From: an uncultured Clostridia bacterium
GTDB taxonomy: Bacteria; Bacillota; Clostridia; TANB77; CAG-465
Assembly: GCA_948562205.1 (NCBI GenBank)
Contig: CAOYAN010000009.1
Span: 187 to 64,186, forward strand
Length of the DNA: 64,000 nt
Direction of reading: 5' to 3'
A program made the position numbers and the translations under genes. The notes under the pieces were generated by a model that was not told the origin of the DNA, made no database searches, and saw only the letters and a list, made by a program, of their open reading frames with translations. Of the stretch, positions 329-64,000 are shown in pieces (within the stretch, counting starts at the first letter, position 1; each line of letters begins with the position of its first letter).

Positions 329-402
329 TGGAGGCGACTATCAGATTTGAACTGATGATCAGGCTTTTGCAGAGCCGTGCCTTACCACTTGGCTAAGTCG
401 CC
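329..402 (-). tRNA. tRNA-Cys (anticodon GCA)
   Basis: The reverse complement reads GGCGACT...AGTCGCC-T-CCA. It has the T-arm ATCAG/TTCAAAT/CTGAT, the anticodon loop CT-GCA-AA, and an encoded CCA. Confidence 0.9.
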
Positions 403-48340: not shown

Positions 48341-48994
48341 ATGCAAGATAAATATAAGTTGACATTAGAACAAAATATATTTTTTGCTAAAAGAAATTTA
48401 GTAGATAATATATATGCTAACGCTAAAATGGAGGAAATTAATATAACTTTAGAGCAAATAAAAACAATACTAGATGGTGTAAGTGTTTCTAATTTAAGAA
48501 TAGATGAGATTGAATGTATTCTTAATTTAAGGGATGCTTGGAAATATATTATAACACATATAGAGGATGAATTTAATCTAGAATATATATGTAAAATAAA
48601 TTCTTTAGTAGCAAGAAATGAAAGTCTAAAATGGGGAGTTTTAAGAACTGGTAAAGTTGAAATAACTGGTACAAAGTATATCCCATCAATTCCAAAGAAA
48701 GATAAAGTATTAGAAGAAATAAGAAATATATTAAAAATAAAAAATACTACTGAAAAAGCAATAGAATATATGTTATATGGAATGAGAAATCAATTATTTT
48801 GGGATGGAAATAAAAGAACTAGTACAATATGTGCTAATAAGATTATGATACAAAATGGAGCTGGAATTATTAAAGTATCAGAAGAAAATTTGGAGGAATT
48901 TAATACCTTACTTAAAGAGTTTTATGATACAAATGAAAAAGAGAAAATAAAATCATTTATATATGAAAAGTGCATAGATGGTATTTCATTTTAA
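48341..48994 (+). CDS. Fic/Doc-family protein with a degenerate active-site motif
   Basis: QLFWDGNKRTSTICAN aligns to HxFx(D/E)GN(G/K)RxxR, with His replaced by Gln. Confidence 0.65.
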   Translation: MQDKYKLTLEQNIFFAKRNLVDNIYANAKMEEINITLEQIKTILDGVSVSNLRIDEIECILNLRDAWKYIITHIEDEFNLEYICKINSLVARNESLKWGVLRTGKVEITGTKYIPSIPKKDKVLEEIRNILKIKNTTEKAIEYMLYGMRNQLFWDGNKRTSTICANKIMIQNGAGIIKVSEENLEEFNTLLKEFYDTNEKEKIKSFIYEKCIDGISF

Positions 48995-49102: not shown

Positions 49103-49218
49103 TAAAAAGTTAGAATACCCTTGCTATAGTAGGGAATTAAAAAAGTAGGAATATCCTTGCCAAAGTAGGAAATTAAAAAAGTAGGAATATCCTTGCCAAA
49201 GTAGGAAATTAAAAAAGT
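49103..49218 (+). ncRNA. ToxI/antiQ-like type III antitoxin RNA: 36-nt tandem repeats (about 3.2 units)
   Basis: 49139-49174 and 49175-49210 are identical (AAAAAAGTAGGAATATCCTTGCCAAAGTAGGAAATT); 49103-49138 is a diverged copy; an 8-nt partial unit follows. Confidence 0.75.
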
Positions 49219-49255
49219 GATATGGCAATTTTCGAATTGCCATATCTTTTGTTTT
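49219..49255 (+). terminator. intrinsic terminator between the repeat RNA and the toxin gene
   Basis: GATATGGCAATT-TTCG-AATTGCCATATC, then TTTTGTTTT. Confidence 0.75.
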
Positions 49256-49267
49256 AAGGAGAAATAG

Positions 49268-49753
49268 ATGAAAAATTTAAAAATATATTATATAAGTGAA
49301 AGCTATGTTAATTATTTAAGGCAATTTGATAAAAATGTTGCATATAATAAAAATACTAAAAGACCATATATTGGAATTGTATATACATATAACAATTATA
49401 ATTATTTTTCACCATTAGCATCCCCTAAAGAAAAGCATAAAAATATAAATTCAAAAGCATTAGATATTTTTAAAATAAAAGATGGAGAACTTGGTGTTGT
49501 TAATATAAATAATATGATTCCAACTCCAATTGAAGAACTAACAGAAGTTTTACCATGCATAACTGATGAAAAATACAAAAAAATGTTAGAAGGGCAATTA
49601 ACTTTTTTAAATAACCATAAATCAGATTTGTTAAAAAAGGTAAATAATTTTCAAAATATGTATAGAAAAGGGCATTTAAATAAAAGTGTTTTAGATAGAT
49701 GTTGTAACTTTTTATTACTTGAAGAAAAATTTAAGGAGTATGTAAAAGAATAA
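49268..49753 (+). CDS. ToxN/AbiQ-family type III toxin endoribonuclease
   Basis: 161 aa; N-terminus MK..KIYYIS..YV.YL..FD..V, then YIGIV...F.PL.SPK.KH, and C-terminal CNF.LLEEK; preceded by repeats and a terminator. Confidence 0.82.
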   Translation: MKNLKIYYISESYVNYLRQFDKNVAYNKNTKRPYIGIVYTYNNYNYFSPLASPKEKHKNINSKALDIFKIKDGELGVVNINNMIPTPIEELTEVLPCITDEKYKKMLEGQLTFLNNHKSDLLKKVNNFQNMYRKGHLNKSVLDRCCNFLLLEEKFKEYVKE

Positions 49754-57551: not shown

Positions 57552-58249
57552 ATGATAGACTTTACTAAATGTCTAGAAATGTTAAATAGTTATAAAGGGT
57601 CTGAGAAGAAAAAAACTTTAATATATTATATATAATGGAAATCAAAAAATTGTTTGTGCTTGTGAAGATTTTACTGATGAGAATAATATATTATATGAAT
57701 TTGAAAATTTAGCATTAAGTAATAATCCAAATAGAAAAATTGAAACTGAATTTAGAGATATAATTGAGGTTATAGAAACAAATGCATGATAAATAGTACT
57801 AATATAAGAGAGAAATTTTTTGATATGTTCATTGTGGATAGCTTAATAGGTAATACAGATAGACACAATGGTAATTGGGGAATATTAATAAGAAAGATAG
57901 TGTTATTTTATTTGCACCAATATATGATTGTGGATCATGCTTAAATCCTATTTTAGAAGATAGAGAAATAGAAGAATTAACTAATGCTGAAATGAAAAAT
58001 TTAGCAATAAATTCATATTCATGTATAAAAGAAAATGGCAAGAAAATTAATTATATGTCATATATTAGTTCTATGAAAAATGAAGAATGTAACAAAGCTA
58101 TACAAAGAATATTTAAAAGAATTAATTTAGATAAAATAAATAGATTTATTGATAGCATTGATTGTATGTCTGTATCAAGAAAAAACTTTTATAAGAAAAT
58201 GATAGAGATAAGATATAATATATTAAATGATGTGTATAATAAACTATAA
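57552..58249 (+). pseudogene. degraded HipA-C-like kinase gene (at least 3 frame disruptions plus an internal deletion)
   Basis: Fragments in three frames: MIDFTKC..KGSEKKK; NGNQKIVCACEDFTDE; FDMFIVDSLIGNTDRHNGNWGILI; VILFAPIYDCGSCLNP... Confidence 0.65.
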
Positions 58250-61374: not shown

Positions 61375-62097
61375 GTGAAATATTTGAAAGGTATATTTAA
61401 ATTTATACGAAATATAATAATACTTTGTATAATTGTTTGTTTAATTTTTGGTGGAACAGTTGTATATAAAGGATATAATATGTATAAGGAGGCTACATCA
61501 AAAATTAGTATTGAAGATAAAGTAAATGAAATAATGTTAGATGACAATTATGTTTTTCTAAAAGATTTACCAGATGACTATATAAAAGCTGTAATTTCTG
61601 TAGAAGATCATAGGTTTTATAACCATTTTGGCATTGATGTTATAGCTCTTACAAGAGCAGTTATAAATAATATTGCTACTATGAGTCTTGCAGAGGGTGG
61701 AAGTACTATAACCCAACAACTTGCAAAGAATTTGTACTTTACTCAGGAAAAAGTTTTCTCAAGGAAAGTAGCTGAAGTTTTTGTAGCTTTTGAATTAGAA
61801 CAAAAATATTCTAAAGATGATATTGTGGAGATGTATGTAAATGTATCATATTTTGGAGATGGATATTATGGTATAGGAGATGCAGCAAAAGGATATTTAA
61901 ATAAAGAGCCAAAAGATATGACACTTGAAGAGTGTACACTTCTTGCAGGACTTCCAAATGCACCAAGTGTGTATGCCTTAAGTAATAATTCAAAACTTAC
62001 TTTACAAAGGCAAAAACAAGTTATTGATGCTATGGTAAAATATGATAATATAGATGCTAAAGAGGCAGAAAAATTAAAAGATAAAATTGGGAAATAG
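61375..62097 (+). CDS. monofunctional peptidoglycan glycosyltransferase (GT51)
   Basis: N-terminal TM segment; EDHRFYNHFGID; GGSTITQQLAKN; RK..E motifs; start codon uncertain. Confidence 0.8.
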   Translation: MKYLKGIFKFIRNIIILCIIVCLIFGGTVVYKGYNMYKEATSKISIEDKVNEIMLDDNYVFLKDLPDDYIKAVISVEDHRFYNHFGIDVIALTRAVINNIATMSLAEGGSTITQQLAKNLYFTQEKVFSRKVAEVFVAFELEQKYSKDDIVEMYVNVSYFGDGYYGIGDAAKGYLNKEPKDMTLEECTLLAGLPNAPSVYALSNNSKLTLQRQKQVIDAMVKYDNIDAKEAEKLKDKIGK

Positions 62098-62195
62098 GTA
62101 AGATAGTAATATCTTATCTATTATGCTTTTTTCTTCTTAAATATTATAATTTTTCTTGACTTTTGAGGTAAATTAATATAAAATAATTATGAAAA

Positions 62196-62210
62196 TAGTA
62201 ATTATTACTA
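62196..62210. promoter_or_regulatory. Fur/PerR-type 7-1-7 operator
   Basis: TAGTAAT-T-ATTACTA is a perfect palindrome 24 nt upstream of the Fur-family gene. Confidence 0.55.
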
Positions 62211-62233
62211 TTTAGAAATGAGGATATAGTATT

Positions 62234-62611
62234 ATGAAATATTCTAAGCAAAGAGAGCAGATTTTGAGATATCTTAAATCTGTAAAAACTCATCCTACTG
62301 CTGAAGATATTTATAAAGAAGTTCGAAAGATAAGTCCAAACATTAGTCTTGGAACAATTTATAGAAATCTTGAATTTTTATCAAATAGTGGTAATATAAA
62401 TAGAATAAAAATAGCAGGAGATAAGGATAGATTTGATTATGATACATCTCATCATTATCATGCAAAATGTATTAAATGCGGAAATATTGAAGATATATTT
62501 GTTGATTATTTAGAAGATATTGATGAAAAAATTAGTAGTATATCAAATATTAAGATTTTATCTCATGATATTATATTTAATACTATATGTAATAATTGTA
62601 ATAAGGTTTAA
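62234..62611 (+). CDS. Fur-family regulator, PerR-like
   Basis: Winged-helix N-terminus; H.HH; CxxC...CxxC; adjacent to rubrerythrin. Confidence 0.8.
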   Translation: MKYSKQREQILRYLKSVKTHPTAEDIYKEVRKISPNISLGTIYRNLEFLSNSGNINRIKIAGDKDRFDYDTSHHYHAKCIKCGNIEDIFVDYLEDIDEKISSISNIKILSHDIIFNTICNNCNKV

Positions 62612-62623
62612 GGAGGATTTTTT

Positions 62624-63163
62624 ATGGATTTAAAAGGAACAAAAACAGAAGCAAATTTACTTGCAGCTTTTGCAGGAGAATCTCAAGCAAGAAACAAGTA
62701 TACATATTATGCTTCTAAAGCAAAAAAAGAAGGATATGAGCAAATTGCTGCTATATTTACAGAAACAGCAGATAATGAAAAAGAACATGCAAAAATGTGG
62801 TTTAAATTATTAAATGGTGGAGATGTTCCAACAACTACACAAAACTTAAAAGATGCTGCAGCAGGTGAAAATTTTGAATGGACTGATATGTATGATGGAT
62901 TTGCAAAAACAGCAAAAGAAGAAGGTTTTGATCATATAGCATATCTATTTGAAGCAGTTGCAAAAATTGAAAAAGAGCATGAAGAAAGATACAAAAAACT
63001 TCTTTCAAATATTGAAGAAGGAAAAGTATTTGAATGTGGGGAAGTTAAAATGTGGAAATGTAGAAATTGCGGACACATACATGTAGCAGTATCTGCACCA
63101 GCAGTATGTCCTGTATGTACTCATCCACAAAGTTACTTTGAAATAAAAGCAGAAAATTATTAA
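62624..63163 (+). CDS. rbr: rubrerythrin
   Basis: Diiron E..H motifs (ESQARN, EKEH x2) plus a C-terminal rubredoxin CxxC...CxxC. Confidence 0.9.
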
Positions 63164-63217
63164 TAGAGATTTTTAAGTCAAACATTGGGTTTGACTTTTC
63201 TATATGGAGGTAAAAAT

Positions 63218-63601
63218 ATGTTAAATATAAAATTTTATTATTGTAAAAAACATGATAATATAATAGAAATTACAAATGCAAAAAATAATGATATATACAT
63301 CGAAAAAGAAGGTTTAGTAGAACTTTTACCAAACACTGTAGATGCAGCAGTTGAAAAACATGTACCATGTGTAGAGTTTGATGGAAATACTCTAAAAGTA
63401 AATGTTGGAGAAGTATCACATCCTATGTCAGATGAGCACTTAATTAGTGCTATATATGTTGTAACTGATAAAGGAACAATATATAGAAAATATCTAACTT
63501 CTAGTGATATGCCAGTATTTGAAATAGAAAATATTGATTCAAAACATATAGATGTATATTCATATTGCAATTTACATGGACTTTGGAAGAAAAGTATATA
63601 G
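63218..63601 (+). CDS. superoxide reductase (desulfoferrodoxin/neelaredoxin family)
   Basis: EKHVP, HPM..EH, CN.HGLW ligand motifs; start after GGAGGT. Confidence 0.8.
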   Translation: MLNIKFYYCKKHDNIIEITNAKNNDIYIEKEGLVELLPNTVDAAVEKHVPCVEFDGNTLKVNVGEVSHPMSDEHLISAIYVVTDKGTIYRKYLTSSDMPVFEIENIDSKHIDVYSYCNLHGLWKKSI

Positions 63602-63629
63602 TAAAATAAACAAAAGTTTAACTTTTGCA

Positions 63630-63657
63630 TTGACTTTTATTGATAATATGGTAAAAT
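63630..63657 (+). promoter_or_regulatory. sigma-A-type promoter for the micro-ORF transcript
   Basis: TTGACT, 16 nt, TAAAAT, with TGn extended -10. Confidence 0.5.
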
Positions 63658-63694
63658 ATTAACACCTACTCAGGTAGAGAGGAGGTGTACTCAA

Positions 63695-63763
63695 TTGATT
63701 GACGTTATTATGCTTATTCTTTTTATAATACTTGTAAGAGAATTAAATAAAATGAATAAGTAG
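63695..63763 (+). CDS. unlisted 22-aa hydrophobic micro-ORF (candidate type I toxin)
   Basis: AGAGGAGG is 9 nt before the TTG; my translation is MIDVIMLILFIILVRELNKMNK; an in-frame ATG lies at 63710. Confidence 0.4.
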   Translation: MIDVIMLILFIILVRELNKMNK

Positions 63764-63773
63764 TAGGAGTAAA

Positions 63774-63799
63774 GTAGTTAGTGTTGCCACATTAACTAC
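63774..63799 (+). terminator. 11-bp hairpin with a UGCC loop after the micro-ORF
   Basis: GTAGTTAGTGT-TGCC-ACATTAACTAC (one G-U pair), followed by T-rich sequence. Confidence 0.5.
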
Positions 63800-63830
63800 T
63801 TATATTTTATGTAAAATAAGAAAATATATG

Positions 63831-63897
63831 CAAAAAAGATAAGATAGTTGCCACTATCTTATCGTACTCAATTGATTTTCATTATTTTACAAGCTTG
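63831..63897 (-). ncRNA. candidate antisense/trans-pairing sRNA of about 65 nt (antitoxin-like)
   Basis: Consensus promoter upstream; 14 nt complementary to the micro-ORF initiation region; 11-bp hairpin plus T6 terminator on the minus strand. Confidence 0.45.
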
Positions 63898-63904
63898 TAA
63901 CTAT

Positions 63905-63933
63905 ATTATACTATAATATATAGTATTTGTCAA
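63905..63933 (-). promoter_or_regulatory. consensus sigma-A promoter on the minus strand
   Basis: The reverse complement reads TTGACA, 17 nt, TATAAT. Confidence 0.55.
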
Positions 63934-64000
63934 TAAGATTTAAAATTTCTAAGGATAAAGATATAAAAAGTAACTTGAAAAAGTAAAATCCATAAAAGAA

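Follow-up and report, generated by a model that had tools for sequence, protein, structure and literature searches.

The 64-kb stretch of DNA analyzed here (contig CAOYAN010000009.1; 26.2% GC), which we call the window, comes from an uncultured Clostridia bacterium and contains, near its right end, an intergenic gap of ~300 bases located 3' of a Fur-rubrerythrin-desulfoferrodoxin (Dfx) operon, the Dfx gene ending at 63601. At the sequence level, two small predicted RNA genes face each other convergently in this gap: a plus-strand gene with a short open reading frame (ORF) for a hydrophobic micro-peptide, and a minus-strand gene for a small RNA (sRNA) complementary to the start region of that ORF. 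We refer to the pair as module A. An earlier inspection of the letters, made without database searches (the sequence-only reading), had described this gap as a type I toxin-antitoxin locus of par(Fst)-like architecture, and all of the elements that it claimed were found in the window where it had placed them. The elements of module A are listed below, with transcript boundaries as predicted.

63630..63657, plus strand: promoter of the peptide mRNA; -35 TTGACT at 63630-35, 16-nt spacer, extended -10 TGgTAAAAT at 63649-57
63664..63810, plus strand: predicted peptide (toxin) mRNA, ~147 nt; start placed 7 nt past the -10, 3' end placed after the U-tract of hairpin 1
63663..63687, plus strand: predicted 5' stem-loop, CACCUACUC / GAGGAGGUG, 8 pairs and 1 mismatch; the 3' arm contains the Shine-Dalgarno (SD) sequence GGAGG, 63681-85
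63687..63709, plus strand: direct-repeat copy 1, the sRNA target site; runs from the SD-to-start spacer through the TTG start codon to codon 5
63695..63763, plus strand: micro-ORF of 22 codons, TTG start, TAG stop, MIDVIMLILFIILVRELNKMNK; read from the sequence and compared across alleles
63772..63810, plus strand: hairpin 1, intrinsic terminator of the peptide mRNA; stem-loop 63772-63801, loop UGCC at 63785-88, apex GUUGCCAC at 63783-90, then AUAUUUUAU
63832..63863, minus strand: hairpin 2, the sRNA terminator; stem-loop 63838-63863, 11 base pairs, loop GGCA, apex GUGGCAAC, T6 at 63832-37
63832..63898, minus strand: predicted antisense sRNA (antitoxin), ~67 nt; unstructured 5' region, terminator hairpin and U6, with predicted ends
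63864..63886, minus strand: direct-repeat copy 2, which forms the sRNA seed and complements the start region of the micro-ORF; located by repeat search and duplex scan
63905..63933, minus strand: sRNA promoter, TTGACA, 17-nt spacer, TATAAT; 12/12 consensus matches

The promoter of the peptide mRNA, which had been given as TTGACT-16-TGnTAAAAT and is indeed present, scores 10/12 consensus matches plus the TG extension and, judged from its sequence, is moderately strong. The predicted mRNA folds with a minimum free energy of -36.3 kcal/mol. Its GGAGG (part of AGAGGAGG, 63678-85) stands 9 nt before the TTG start, in agreement with the strong SD noted earlier; the predicted 5' hairpin that buries this SD was absent from the sequence-only reading and emerged in the follow-up. 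The 22-codon hydrophobic ORF with a basic tail was likewise confirmed, and the layout of its product, with an acidic residue at position 3 (Asp), an unbroken 11-residue hydrophobic core and the basic tail RELNKMNK, is that of a peptide expected to insert into the membrane. Among the 649 small ORFs of the window (15-40 codons), a run of at least 11 Ile, Leu, Val, Phe, or Met residues occurs in 2 and GGAGG at 4-10 nt in 3, and the micro-ORF alone (1/649) combines such a run with a properly spaced GGAGG. The plus-strand hairpin with a UGCC loop is present, although it comprises 13 pairs, including one G.U, rather than the 11 initially counted.

On the minus strand, the perfect TTGACA-17-TATAAT promoter claimed at 63933-63905 was recovered in full, as was the terminator of the RNA that it would drive, an 11-base-pair hairpin (63863-63838) with a GGCA loop followed by T6. 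The gap between the two terminators is 36 nt, and both RNAs are predicted to end without overlap. Four terminator-like sites were observed in 62500-64000, against 0.2 expected.

The two RNAs share two candidate contact sites. The first is the direct repeat: the 14-mer GTACTCAATTGATT, previously noticed at 63687 and 63864, is found at both positions, and the repeat extends beyond it to 20/23 positions, such that the duplex between the sRNA and the start region would consist of 14 Watson-Crick pairs, 2 mismatches, and then 7 further pairs including one G.U. The predicted sRNA 5' region was scanned against both strands of the window, with dinucleotide shuffles (n = 1000) as a control. In this duplex scoring, which had been proposed along with the original claim, the strongest target in the window other than the sRNA's own site is the start region of the micro-ORF at -27.3 kcal/mol, the next unrelated site reaching -20.2 kcal/mol (window mean -8.2, standard deviation 2.8), and 0/1000 shuffles reach the observed energy (z = -6.3). 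Co-folding of the module A RNAs gives a net gain of -24.7 kcal/mol, with pairing from the spacer through the start codon to codon 5. The second site is formed by the terminator apexes. The 8-nt complementarity described between the terminator loops exists (GUUGCCAC versus GUGGCAAC), although loop bases make up 4/8 of it and the remainder consists of two closing pairs per stem. The 8-mer GTTGCCAC occurs at just two sites in the 64 kb, which are the two hairpin apexes, compared with 0.066 expected per strand. The features of module A are jointly far above chance, though some of them are weak individually.

Alleles, a paralogous module and natural losses

Relatives of the locus were collected via exact-protein look-ups of the neighboring genes, via Dfx homologues, and via members of the Dfx 90% cluster. 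Module A is identical in the conspecific contigs L001-L009; the states found at this site in the wider set are as follows.

A1: the window; intact
A3: L040-42 (Dfx 95%); intact, a single base changed in the loop of the 5' hairpin, D3Y (Tyr at position 3)
A2: L014-17 (Dfx 91%); intact, V4I, one synonymous change, stop TAG to TAA
A4: L044-47; decayed
A5: L048-51; peptide half wholly missing, hairpin 1 retained as the Dfx terminator, sRNA gene intact
No module: more distant relatives (Dfx 67-83%); spacers of 85-176 nt without trace of the module, same flanking genes

The nucleotide-distance tree of the Dfx gene, ((A1,A3),(A2,A4,A5)), indicates that the module is ancestral to this small clade and that A4 and A5 are derived losses. 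We also considered A5 as the ancestral state, with later insertion of a peptide cassette; this was rejected, since the tree nests A5 within (A2,A4,A5), and it is further excluded by A4, which shares derived sRNA features with A5 yet still carries a decayed ORF.

Comparison of A1 with A2 shows constraint that follows the predicted elements. Between these two alleles, 9.4% of all Dfx sites and 16% of third positions are different. The elements, which were predicted from A1 alone (the four hexamers, 5' untranslated region, ORF, both hairpins, U-run, and sRNA 5' region), differ at 10/224 positions (4.5%), against 32/129 (24.8%) in the spacers and flanks (Fisher p = 3e-8). The plus-promoter hexamers are identical in A1, A2, and A3, with the spacer changed at 3/16 positions, and the sRNA promoter of A2 retains both hexamers and the 17-nt spacing, with 6/17 spacer bases different. 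The stem of the 5' hairpin is unchanged in A1-A4, A3 differing by one loop base only. Across alleles, 97% of the cells of hairpin 1 remain paired, one pair varying among G.U, G-C, and A-U; hairpin 2 is identical in A1-A3 and has undergone one compensatory change from A-U to G-C in A4 and A5. Promoter hexamers, SD-sequestering hairpin, ORF, both terminators, and loop complementarity are retained in the three intact alleles.

The start-region contact co-varies among these alleles. An A-to-G change at 63693 in repeat copy 1 of A2 is mirrored in copy 2, and D3Y (A3) and V4I (A2) each turn a mismatch or wobble of the duplex into a Watson-Crick pair, strengthening it; in the matrix of duplexes between alleles, the cognate pair is the strongest in every row and column. 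We also noted a possible long-range pairing of 5 base pairs, UACUC/GAGUA (63687-63691 with 63766-63770), which connects the first bases of repeat copy 1 with the 3' untranslated region directly ahead of hairpin 1 and may be a par-like upstream helix, the 5'-3' pairing by which the toxin RNA of par is stabilized. It is predicted in A1 and A3; A2 alters both segments and pairs CGC/GCG in a shifted register, so the two segments do not covary cleanly.

A profile of module A identified a second module, module B, at L001:16682-16960 (nhmmer, E = 1e-12), 5.7 kb downstream and beyond the end of the window. Module B is also present in L002 and L003, located between a DUF1287 gene and a peptide deformylase gene, and its overall DNA identity to module A is 54%; tblastn and nhmmer found no further module copies inside the 64-kb window. 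Its plus strand carries the promoter TTGATG-17-TGgTATAAT, a predicted 5' hairpin (CACCAUCC / GGAGGUG) that covers the SD, and the start arrangement GGAGG, 8 nt, TTG. The ORF that begins at this TTG has 22 codons and would encode MGELILVLFLMLIFVKEINNKK, in which residue 3 is acidic, the hydrophobic core spans 12 residues, and the tail reads KEINNKK; the basic-tail pattern [R/K]-E-[L/I]-N is common to peptides A and B. The plus-strand terminator, A7, and the minus-strand terminator come next, with a gap of 15 nt between the terminators, and the minus-strand promoter is TTGACT-17-TATAAT. That SD spacing, TTG, a length of exactly 22 codons, and the residue pattern are kept at 54% DNA identity argues for translation of the ORF.

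The contact sites of module B occupy corresponding positions with different sequences. Its repeats, GACUAU-UUGG and UUAAUCCUUG, lie at the start region and after hairpin 2 (in blocks of 6, 4, and 10 nt) and extend, as in module A, from the spacer across the start codon into the first codons. Its apex AAUUGCCGUU, common to both of its hairpins, is complementary to AACGGCAAUU over 10 nt, the apex of module A being GUUGCCAC. Predicted binding free-energy differences (ddG) are -24.7 kcal/mol for A with A and -16.2 kcal/mol for B with B, versus -1.5 kcal/mol for A with B and -6.4 kcal/mol for B with A. Both RNA contact sites have changed together between the paralogues, and predicted binding is specific to the cognate pair. 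The sequence-only reading had named failure of the repeats and loop complementarity to be conserved in homologous loci as evidence against itself; we find both kept in the three intact alleles and co-varying in paralogue B.

The defective alleles reveal on which side the module breaks. In A4, the -35 reads TTAGTT in place of TTGACT, the start-codon frame is lost through a deletion of 4 nt, and another deletion, of 5 nt, introduces a stop following codon 15. This is also the one allele in which the seed, loop, and -35 of the sRNA are eroded, and its module has diverged from A2 3.4x faster than the flanking Dfx gene (p = 1e-6). A5 has lost the peptide half and keeps every part of the sRNA gene (promoter, seed, hairpin, and U-run); the apex of hairpin 1, retained in every allele still carrying the ORF, has changed to GUUCAUUGC where the ORF was lost (A5) and the apex would have no partner left to match. 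Module B is intact in L001 and bears a -35 point mutation in L002; in L003, a 98-nt deletion between ATTTTT microhomologies has removed everything from the promoter through codon 14, with the sRNA half 100% identical. Peptide-side damage is thereby present in every defective allele, through four independent lesions (A4, A5, L003 module B, and L002 module B), and an intact ORF with a damaged sRNA was found in none of the contigs compared. Loop complementarity is present in 4/4 intact modules (A1-A3 and B) and absent from both toxin-defective module A alleles, having been lost once via a change in hairpin 2 and once via a change in hairpin 1. Loss on the peptide side with the sRNA spared is the pattern predicted for a harmful gene and its antidote, and it provides indirect evidence, drawn from few lineages, that the peptide may be harmful.

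The DNA to the right of the sRNA promoter (window 63945-64000) is structurally polymorphic among near-identical contigs. After ~63969, the window, L004, L006, and L007 share one sequence and L001-L003 another, the latter leading to a 287-aa gene and an ATP-binding cassette (ABC) exporter; L040 has an additional insertion of ~480 nt right of module A. The ends of two assemblies, 17-89 nt beyond that of the window, point to a repeat or mobile element at this place, and the sequence right of the breakpoint had no match in viral contigs. Separately, one low-coverage contig (L005:5511-5566, corresponding to the window from 63864 onward) diverges from all the other contigs over its final 52 nt, exactly from the point where hairpin 2 meets repeat copy 2; this departure may be an assembly chimera or a variant with a replaced sRNA seed and promoter.

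Comparison with known type I systems

A search of 62000-64000 against Rfam 15 at E up to 10 returned only chance-level matches (E > 3), and a scan of the whole window at gathering thresholds had a tRNA gene (332-402, minus strand) as its sole match. The peptide had no match in Pfam and NCBIfam (E up to 10), PADLOC, or PHROGs, and searches of PLSDB plasmids and INPHARED phages with the locus (blastn) and the peptide (tblastn) gave nothing or chance AT-rich matches only. Degenerate peptide patterns yielded 10 matches in viral contigs, all chance, none of which had the RELNKMNK tail after the motif; stricter and SD-anchored patterns had no match in viral contigs or JGI metagenomes, and patterns built on the A/B consensus had none in viral contigs. 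The early patterns fixed the core length and would have missed module B, which makes the metagenome negatives weak. A Dfx-protein scan of a genome-contig collection in which the species is not included found only relatives of <=46% identity. Modules A and B have the general makeup of type I systems, a hydrophobic peptide of <60 aa together with an sRNA that has extended complementarity to the mRNA.

The par locus of pAD1 (Enterococcus faecalis; RNA I/Fst and RNA II) has convergent RNAs, direct repeats, terminator loops, an SD-sequestering stem-loop, and an ordered series of binding steps (PMC7472228). Modules A and B resemble it at the sequence level in their convergent promoters, with hexamers conserved and spacers divergent, and in a small hydrophobic peptide that is charged both in its C-terminal tail and near the N-terminus (Asp/Glu at 3; Tyr in A3). 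Direct repeats (DRa and DRb in par) that are transcribed oppositely, such that the sRNA pairs over the start region, are also found in both modules, as are complementary terminator stem-loops (8 nt in A and 10 nt in B), which are the likely first contact and could kiss. An intramolecular 5' stem-loop that would sequester the SD is predicted in both modules, as in par, and the interaction-site sequences differ between paralogues, insulating them.

The modules depart from par in the peptide and in the terminators. The module A peptide has 22 aa, compared with 33 aa for Fst. Toxins of the Fst/Ldr type contain an essential PXXXG motif in the hydrophobic domain and a conserved Trp (PMC7472228); unlike that family (Pfam PF13955, Fst_toxin), MIDVIMLILFIILVRELNKMNK and MGELILVLFLMLIFVKEINNKK have no Pro, no Trp, and no PXXXG, and the single Gly among peptides A and B, residue 2 of B, lies outside a PXXXG context. 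The shared bidirectional terminator of par is replaced in modules A and B by two separate hairpins, which means that the loop complementarity of module A is encoded twice and not by one bidirectional terminator. A YUNR U-turn motif, which is not in all par homologues (PMC7472228), is present in neither loop, as none fits UGCC or GUUGCCAC. Module A also differs from par in having no Rfam match and in its host, an uncultured Clostridia bacterium. The par(Fst)-like architecture originally proposed therefore holds as an analogy of mechanism, in the convergent promoters, repeats, and complementary apexes, and does not extend to membership of the Fst family or to a shared terminator.

In Staphylococcus aureus, SprA1AS represses SprA1 translation in trans through pairing of its 5' domain with the start region, separate from the 3' regions in which the two genes face each other (system summarized in PMC7472228 and PMC6563280). 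Start-region pairing by the sRNA 5' domain is what module A would have in common with this system; the SprA1 and SprA1AS RNAs, however, overlap at their 3' ends, which the module A RNAs are predicted not to do, and PepA1 is an Fst-family peptide of 30 aa whose locus is on a pathogenicity island. The ibs/Sib and shoB/OhsC pairs of Escherichia coli also consist of very short hydrophobic toxins (19 and 26 aa) repressed by small RNAs, and the module A peptide, at 22 aa, falls between IbsC (19 aa) and ShoB (26 aa). IbsC remains toxic when shortened to 15 aa with 10 hydrophobic residues (PMC8309996), a tolerance that makes a 22-aa toxin plausible. In contrast to module A, Sib is fully antisense to ibs, and OhsC is divergent and pairs in the 5' untranslated region; the Ibs and ShoB toxins are proteobacterial, lack a basic tail, and have no sequence relation to the module A peptide.

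Clostridioides difficile modules such as CD0956.2-RCd10 and CD2517.1-RCd8 have in common with module A a Clostridia host and a hydrophobic toxin with a charged, lysine-rich C-terminus, and they too are present as several paralogues in one genome, each specific for its own partner (PMC6563280). With 34-59 aa, the type I toxins of C. difficile are longer than the module A peptide, and their antisense RNAs overlap the toxin gene (PMC6563280), which the module A sRNA is predicted not to do. The C. difficile loci lie in prophages or beside clustered regularly interspaced short palindromic repeat (CRISPR) arrays, and no sequence similarity between them and module A was detected.

Interpretation and rival explanations

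Based on these comparisons, module A is probably an sRNA-repressed toxic micro-peptide module, that is, a type I toxin-antitoxin pair encoded in the chromosome and belonging to a family not described before. We lean, by a lesser degree of belief, toward the more specific proposal of an undescribed type I family that combines a 22-residue toxin, among the shortest known, with separate tetraloops, UGCC and GGCA, that co-evolve, and in which the toxin has been lost repeatedly in nature. A par-like logic achieved with one terminator for each RNA and with a very short, unrelated peptide appears well supported by the sequences, and it is not a surprise in kind.

In the mechanism that we propose, which supposes that both transcripts are made and the ORF is translated, as we infer from the sequences, the nascent peptide mRNA (~147 nt) would hide its own SD in the 5' hairpin, and the stronger consensus promoter would drive the convergent sRNA of ~67 nt. 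The sRNA apex GUGGCAAC would kiss the mRNA apex GUUGCCAC first, a step order borrowed from par (PMC7472228), and the single-stranded 5' region of the sRNA would then zip over 23 nt of the start region, from the SD-to-start spacer through the start codon to codon 5. This duplex would block ribosome entry and may trigger duplex cleavage, leaving a membrane-active, presumably toxic peptide untranslated. The tetraloops and their closing pairs would co-evolve for complementarity within a module and diverge between paralogues for insulation.

Several observations weigh against a toxin-antitoxin pair. The hydrophobic cores of peptides A and B, at 11-12 residues, are short for a membrane span. BLASTP of peptide A versus peptide B returned no alignment, and the relatedness of the two modules rests on the DNA-level match together with position. 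The body of the micro-ORF also forms a long predicted hairpin which, with just 3 informative substitutions in module A, makes constraint on coding and constraint on RNA structure inseparable. Covariation counts in hairpins 1 and 2 are not significant with 3-4 distinct sequences, and the module family is seen in one narrow clade of uncultured Clostridia only. The sRNA retained after toxin loss could instead reflect an independent role of the sRNA. As a class, promoter-like matches are not enriched, hexamer pairs being equally frequent in shuffled sequence; 14-nt repeats within 300 nt recur at a few other sites in the window; and AT-rich DNA readily gives hydrophobic ORFs rich in Ile, Leu, Phe, Lys, and Asn, which makes composition alone weak evidence. 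The last three of these points would favor a chance constellation, or a nonfunctional relic, in AT-rich intergenic DNA, which we nevertheless hold to be very improbable. Conservation is specific to the elements at the significance given above, both contact sites co-vary in the paralogue with predicted binding in cognate pairs only, the apex 8-mer is found nowhere in the window but in the two hairpins, and an SD and a hydrophobic run are jointly rare; the conservation statistics and the cognate binding of the paralogue effectively refute this explanation.

The RNA-level evidence, all of it, would fit equally well an sRNA-repressed small membrane protein with a non-toxic physiological role, for example a transporter modulator or a stress protein, and the setting of module A, which adjoins an oxidative-stress operon (Fur-rubrerythrin-desulfoferrodoxin) and precedes an ABC exporter in some strains, is compatible with such a role. 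We consider this unlikely, because the peptide gene is dispensable and has been repeatedly deleted or pseudogenized in close relatives with the sRNA spared, as would be expected of a harmful gene and its antidote and not of a useful protein and its repressor; moreover, one genome holds two paralogues with insulated specificity, and the module is missing from slightly more distant relatives that have the same flanking genes. A different role for the same RNAs, in which the minus-strand sRNA is a functional trans-acting regulator and the plus RNA a noncoding decoy or sponge, or a decaying duplicate with an untranslated micro-ORF, would account for the intact sRNA gene in the ORF-less alleles (A5 and module B in L003), and the conservation of the module A ORF could reflect its predicted internal hairpin. 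This is quite unlikely in view of paralogue B, in which GGAGG at 8-9 nt, TTG, 22 codons, acidic residue 3, core, and basic tail are all kept. An SD-sequestering 5' hairpin would also be purposeless on a noncoding RNA, the sRNA seed has no other strong target in the 64-kb window, and A4 combines a dead ORF with decay in the seed, loop, and -35 of the sRNA. Leader-peptide attenuation is known for heterodimeric ABC exporters (Bacillus subtilis bmrCD), and one such exporter lies downstream on the same strand in L001-L003, where the micro-ORF could in principle be a leader peptide and the hairpins an attenuator of the 287-aa gene and the exporter operon. Of the alternatives this is the least probable, and we rejected it, since the downstream gene has its own conserved promoter, which is kept in module-less relatives, the sequence right of the module varies among conspecific contigs, the window included, and a consensus minus-strand promoter and a terminator intervene between the ORF and the downstream gene; module B, for its part, is positioned upstream of a convergent gene.

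If module A is the type I toxin-antitoxin pair that we favor, a shared terminator is dispensable for the two-step recognition of par, in which the loops kiss before the start region is occluded, and par-like logic may well have evolved convergently. The 22-residue peptide of the module would then bear on how small a membrane toxin can be, and repeated loss of the peptide gene with the sRNA spared would amount to population-level evidence of toxicity from wild populations. The locus is a compact candidate in that both RNA contacts are readable from the sequence, the paralogues constitute a natural specificity swap, and toxin-less natural alleles exist.

Other elements of the window

A type III toxin-antitoxin locus is located at 49104-49753 of the window. 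It consists of three tandem 36-nt repeats (AAAAAGTAGGAATATCCTTGCCAAAGTAGGAAATTA, 49104-49218), followed by a hairpin and a T-run, and of a downstream ORF of 161 aa (49268-49753) that matches Pfam ToxN_toxin with E = 3.5e-38; the ToxIN-like repeats matched no Rfam family at the gathering threshold. Directly upstream of this locus is a gene for a 217-aa protein of the Fic/DOC family (48341-48994; Pfam E = 6e-8). With the ToxIN-like locus, the Fic/DOC protein, and module A, the window carries several toxin-type elements.

At 57552-58249, a 27-codon ORF with a strong SD (57552-57635) is accompanied by a separate ORF of 124 aa (57875-58249) that has no Pfam match. The gene calls in this region differ between conspecific contigs (50 aa versus 124 aa), and from its sequence the region looks like a frameshifted pseudogene.

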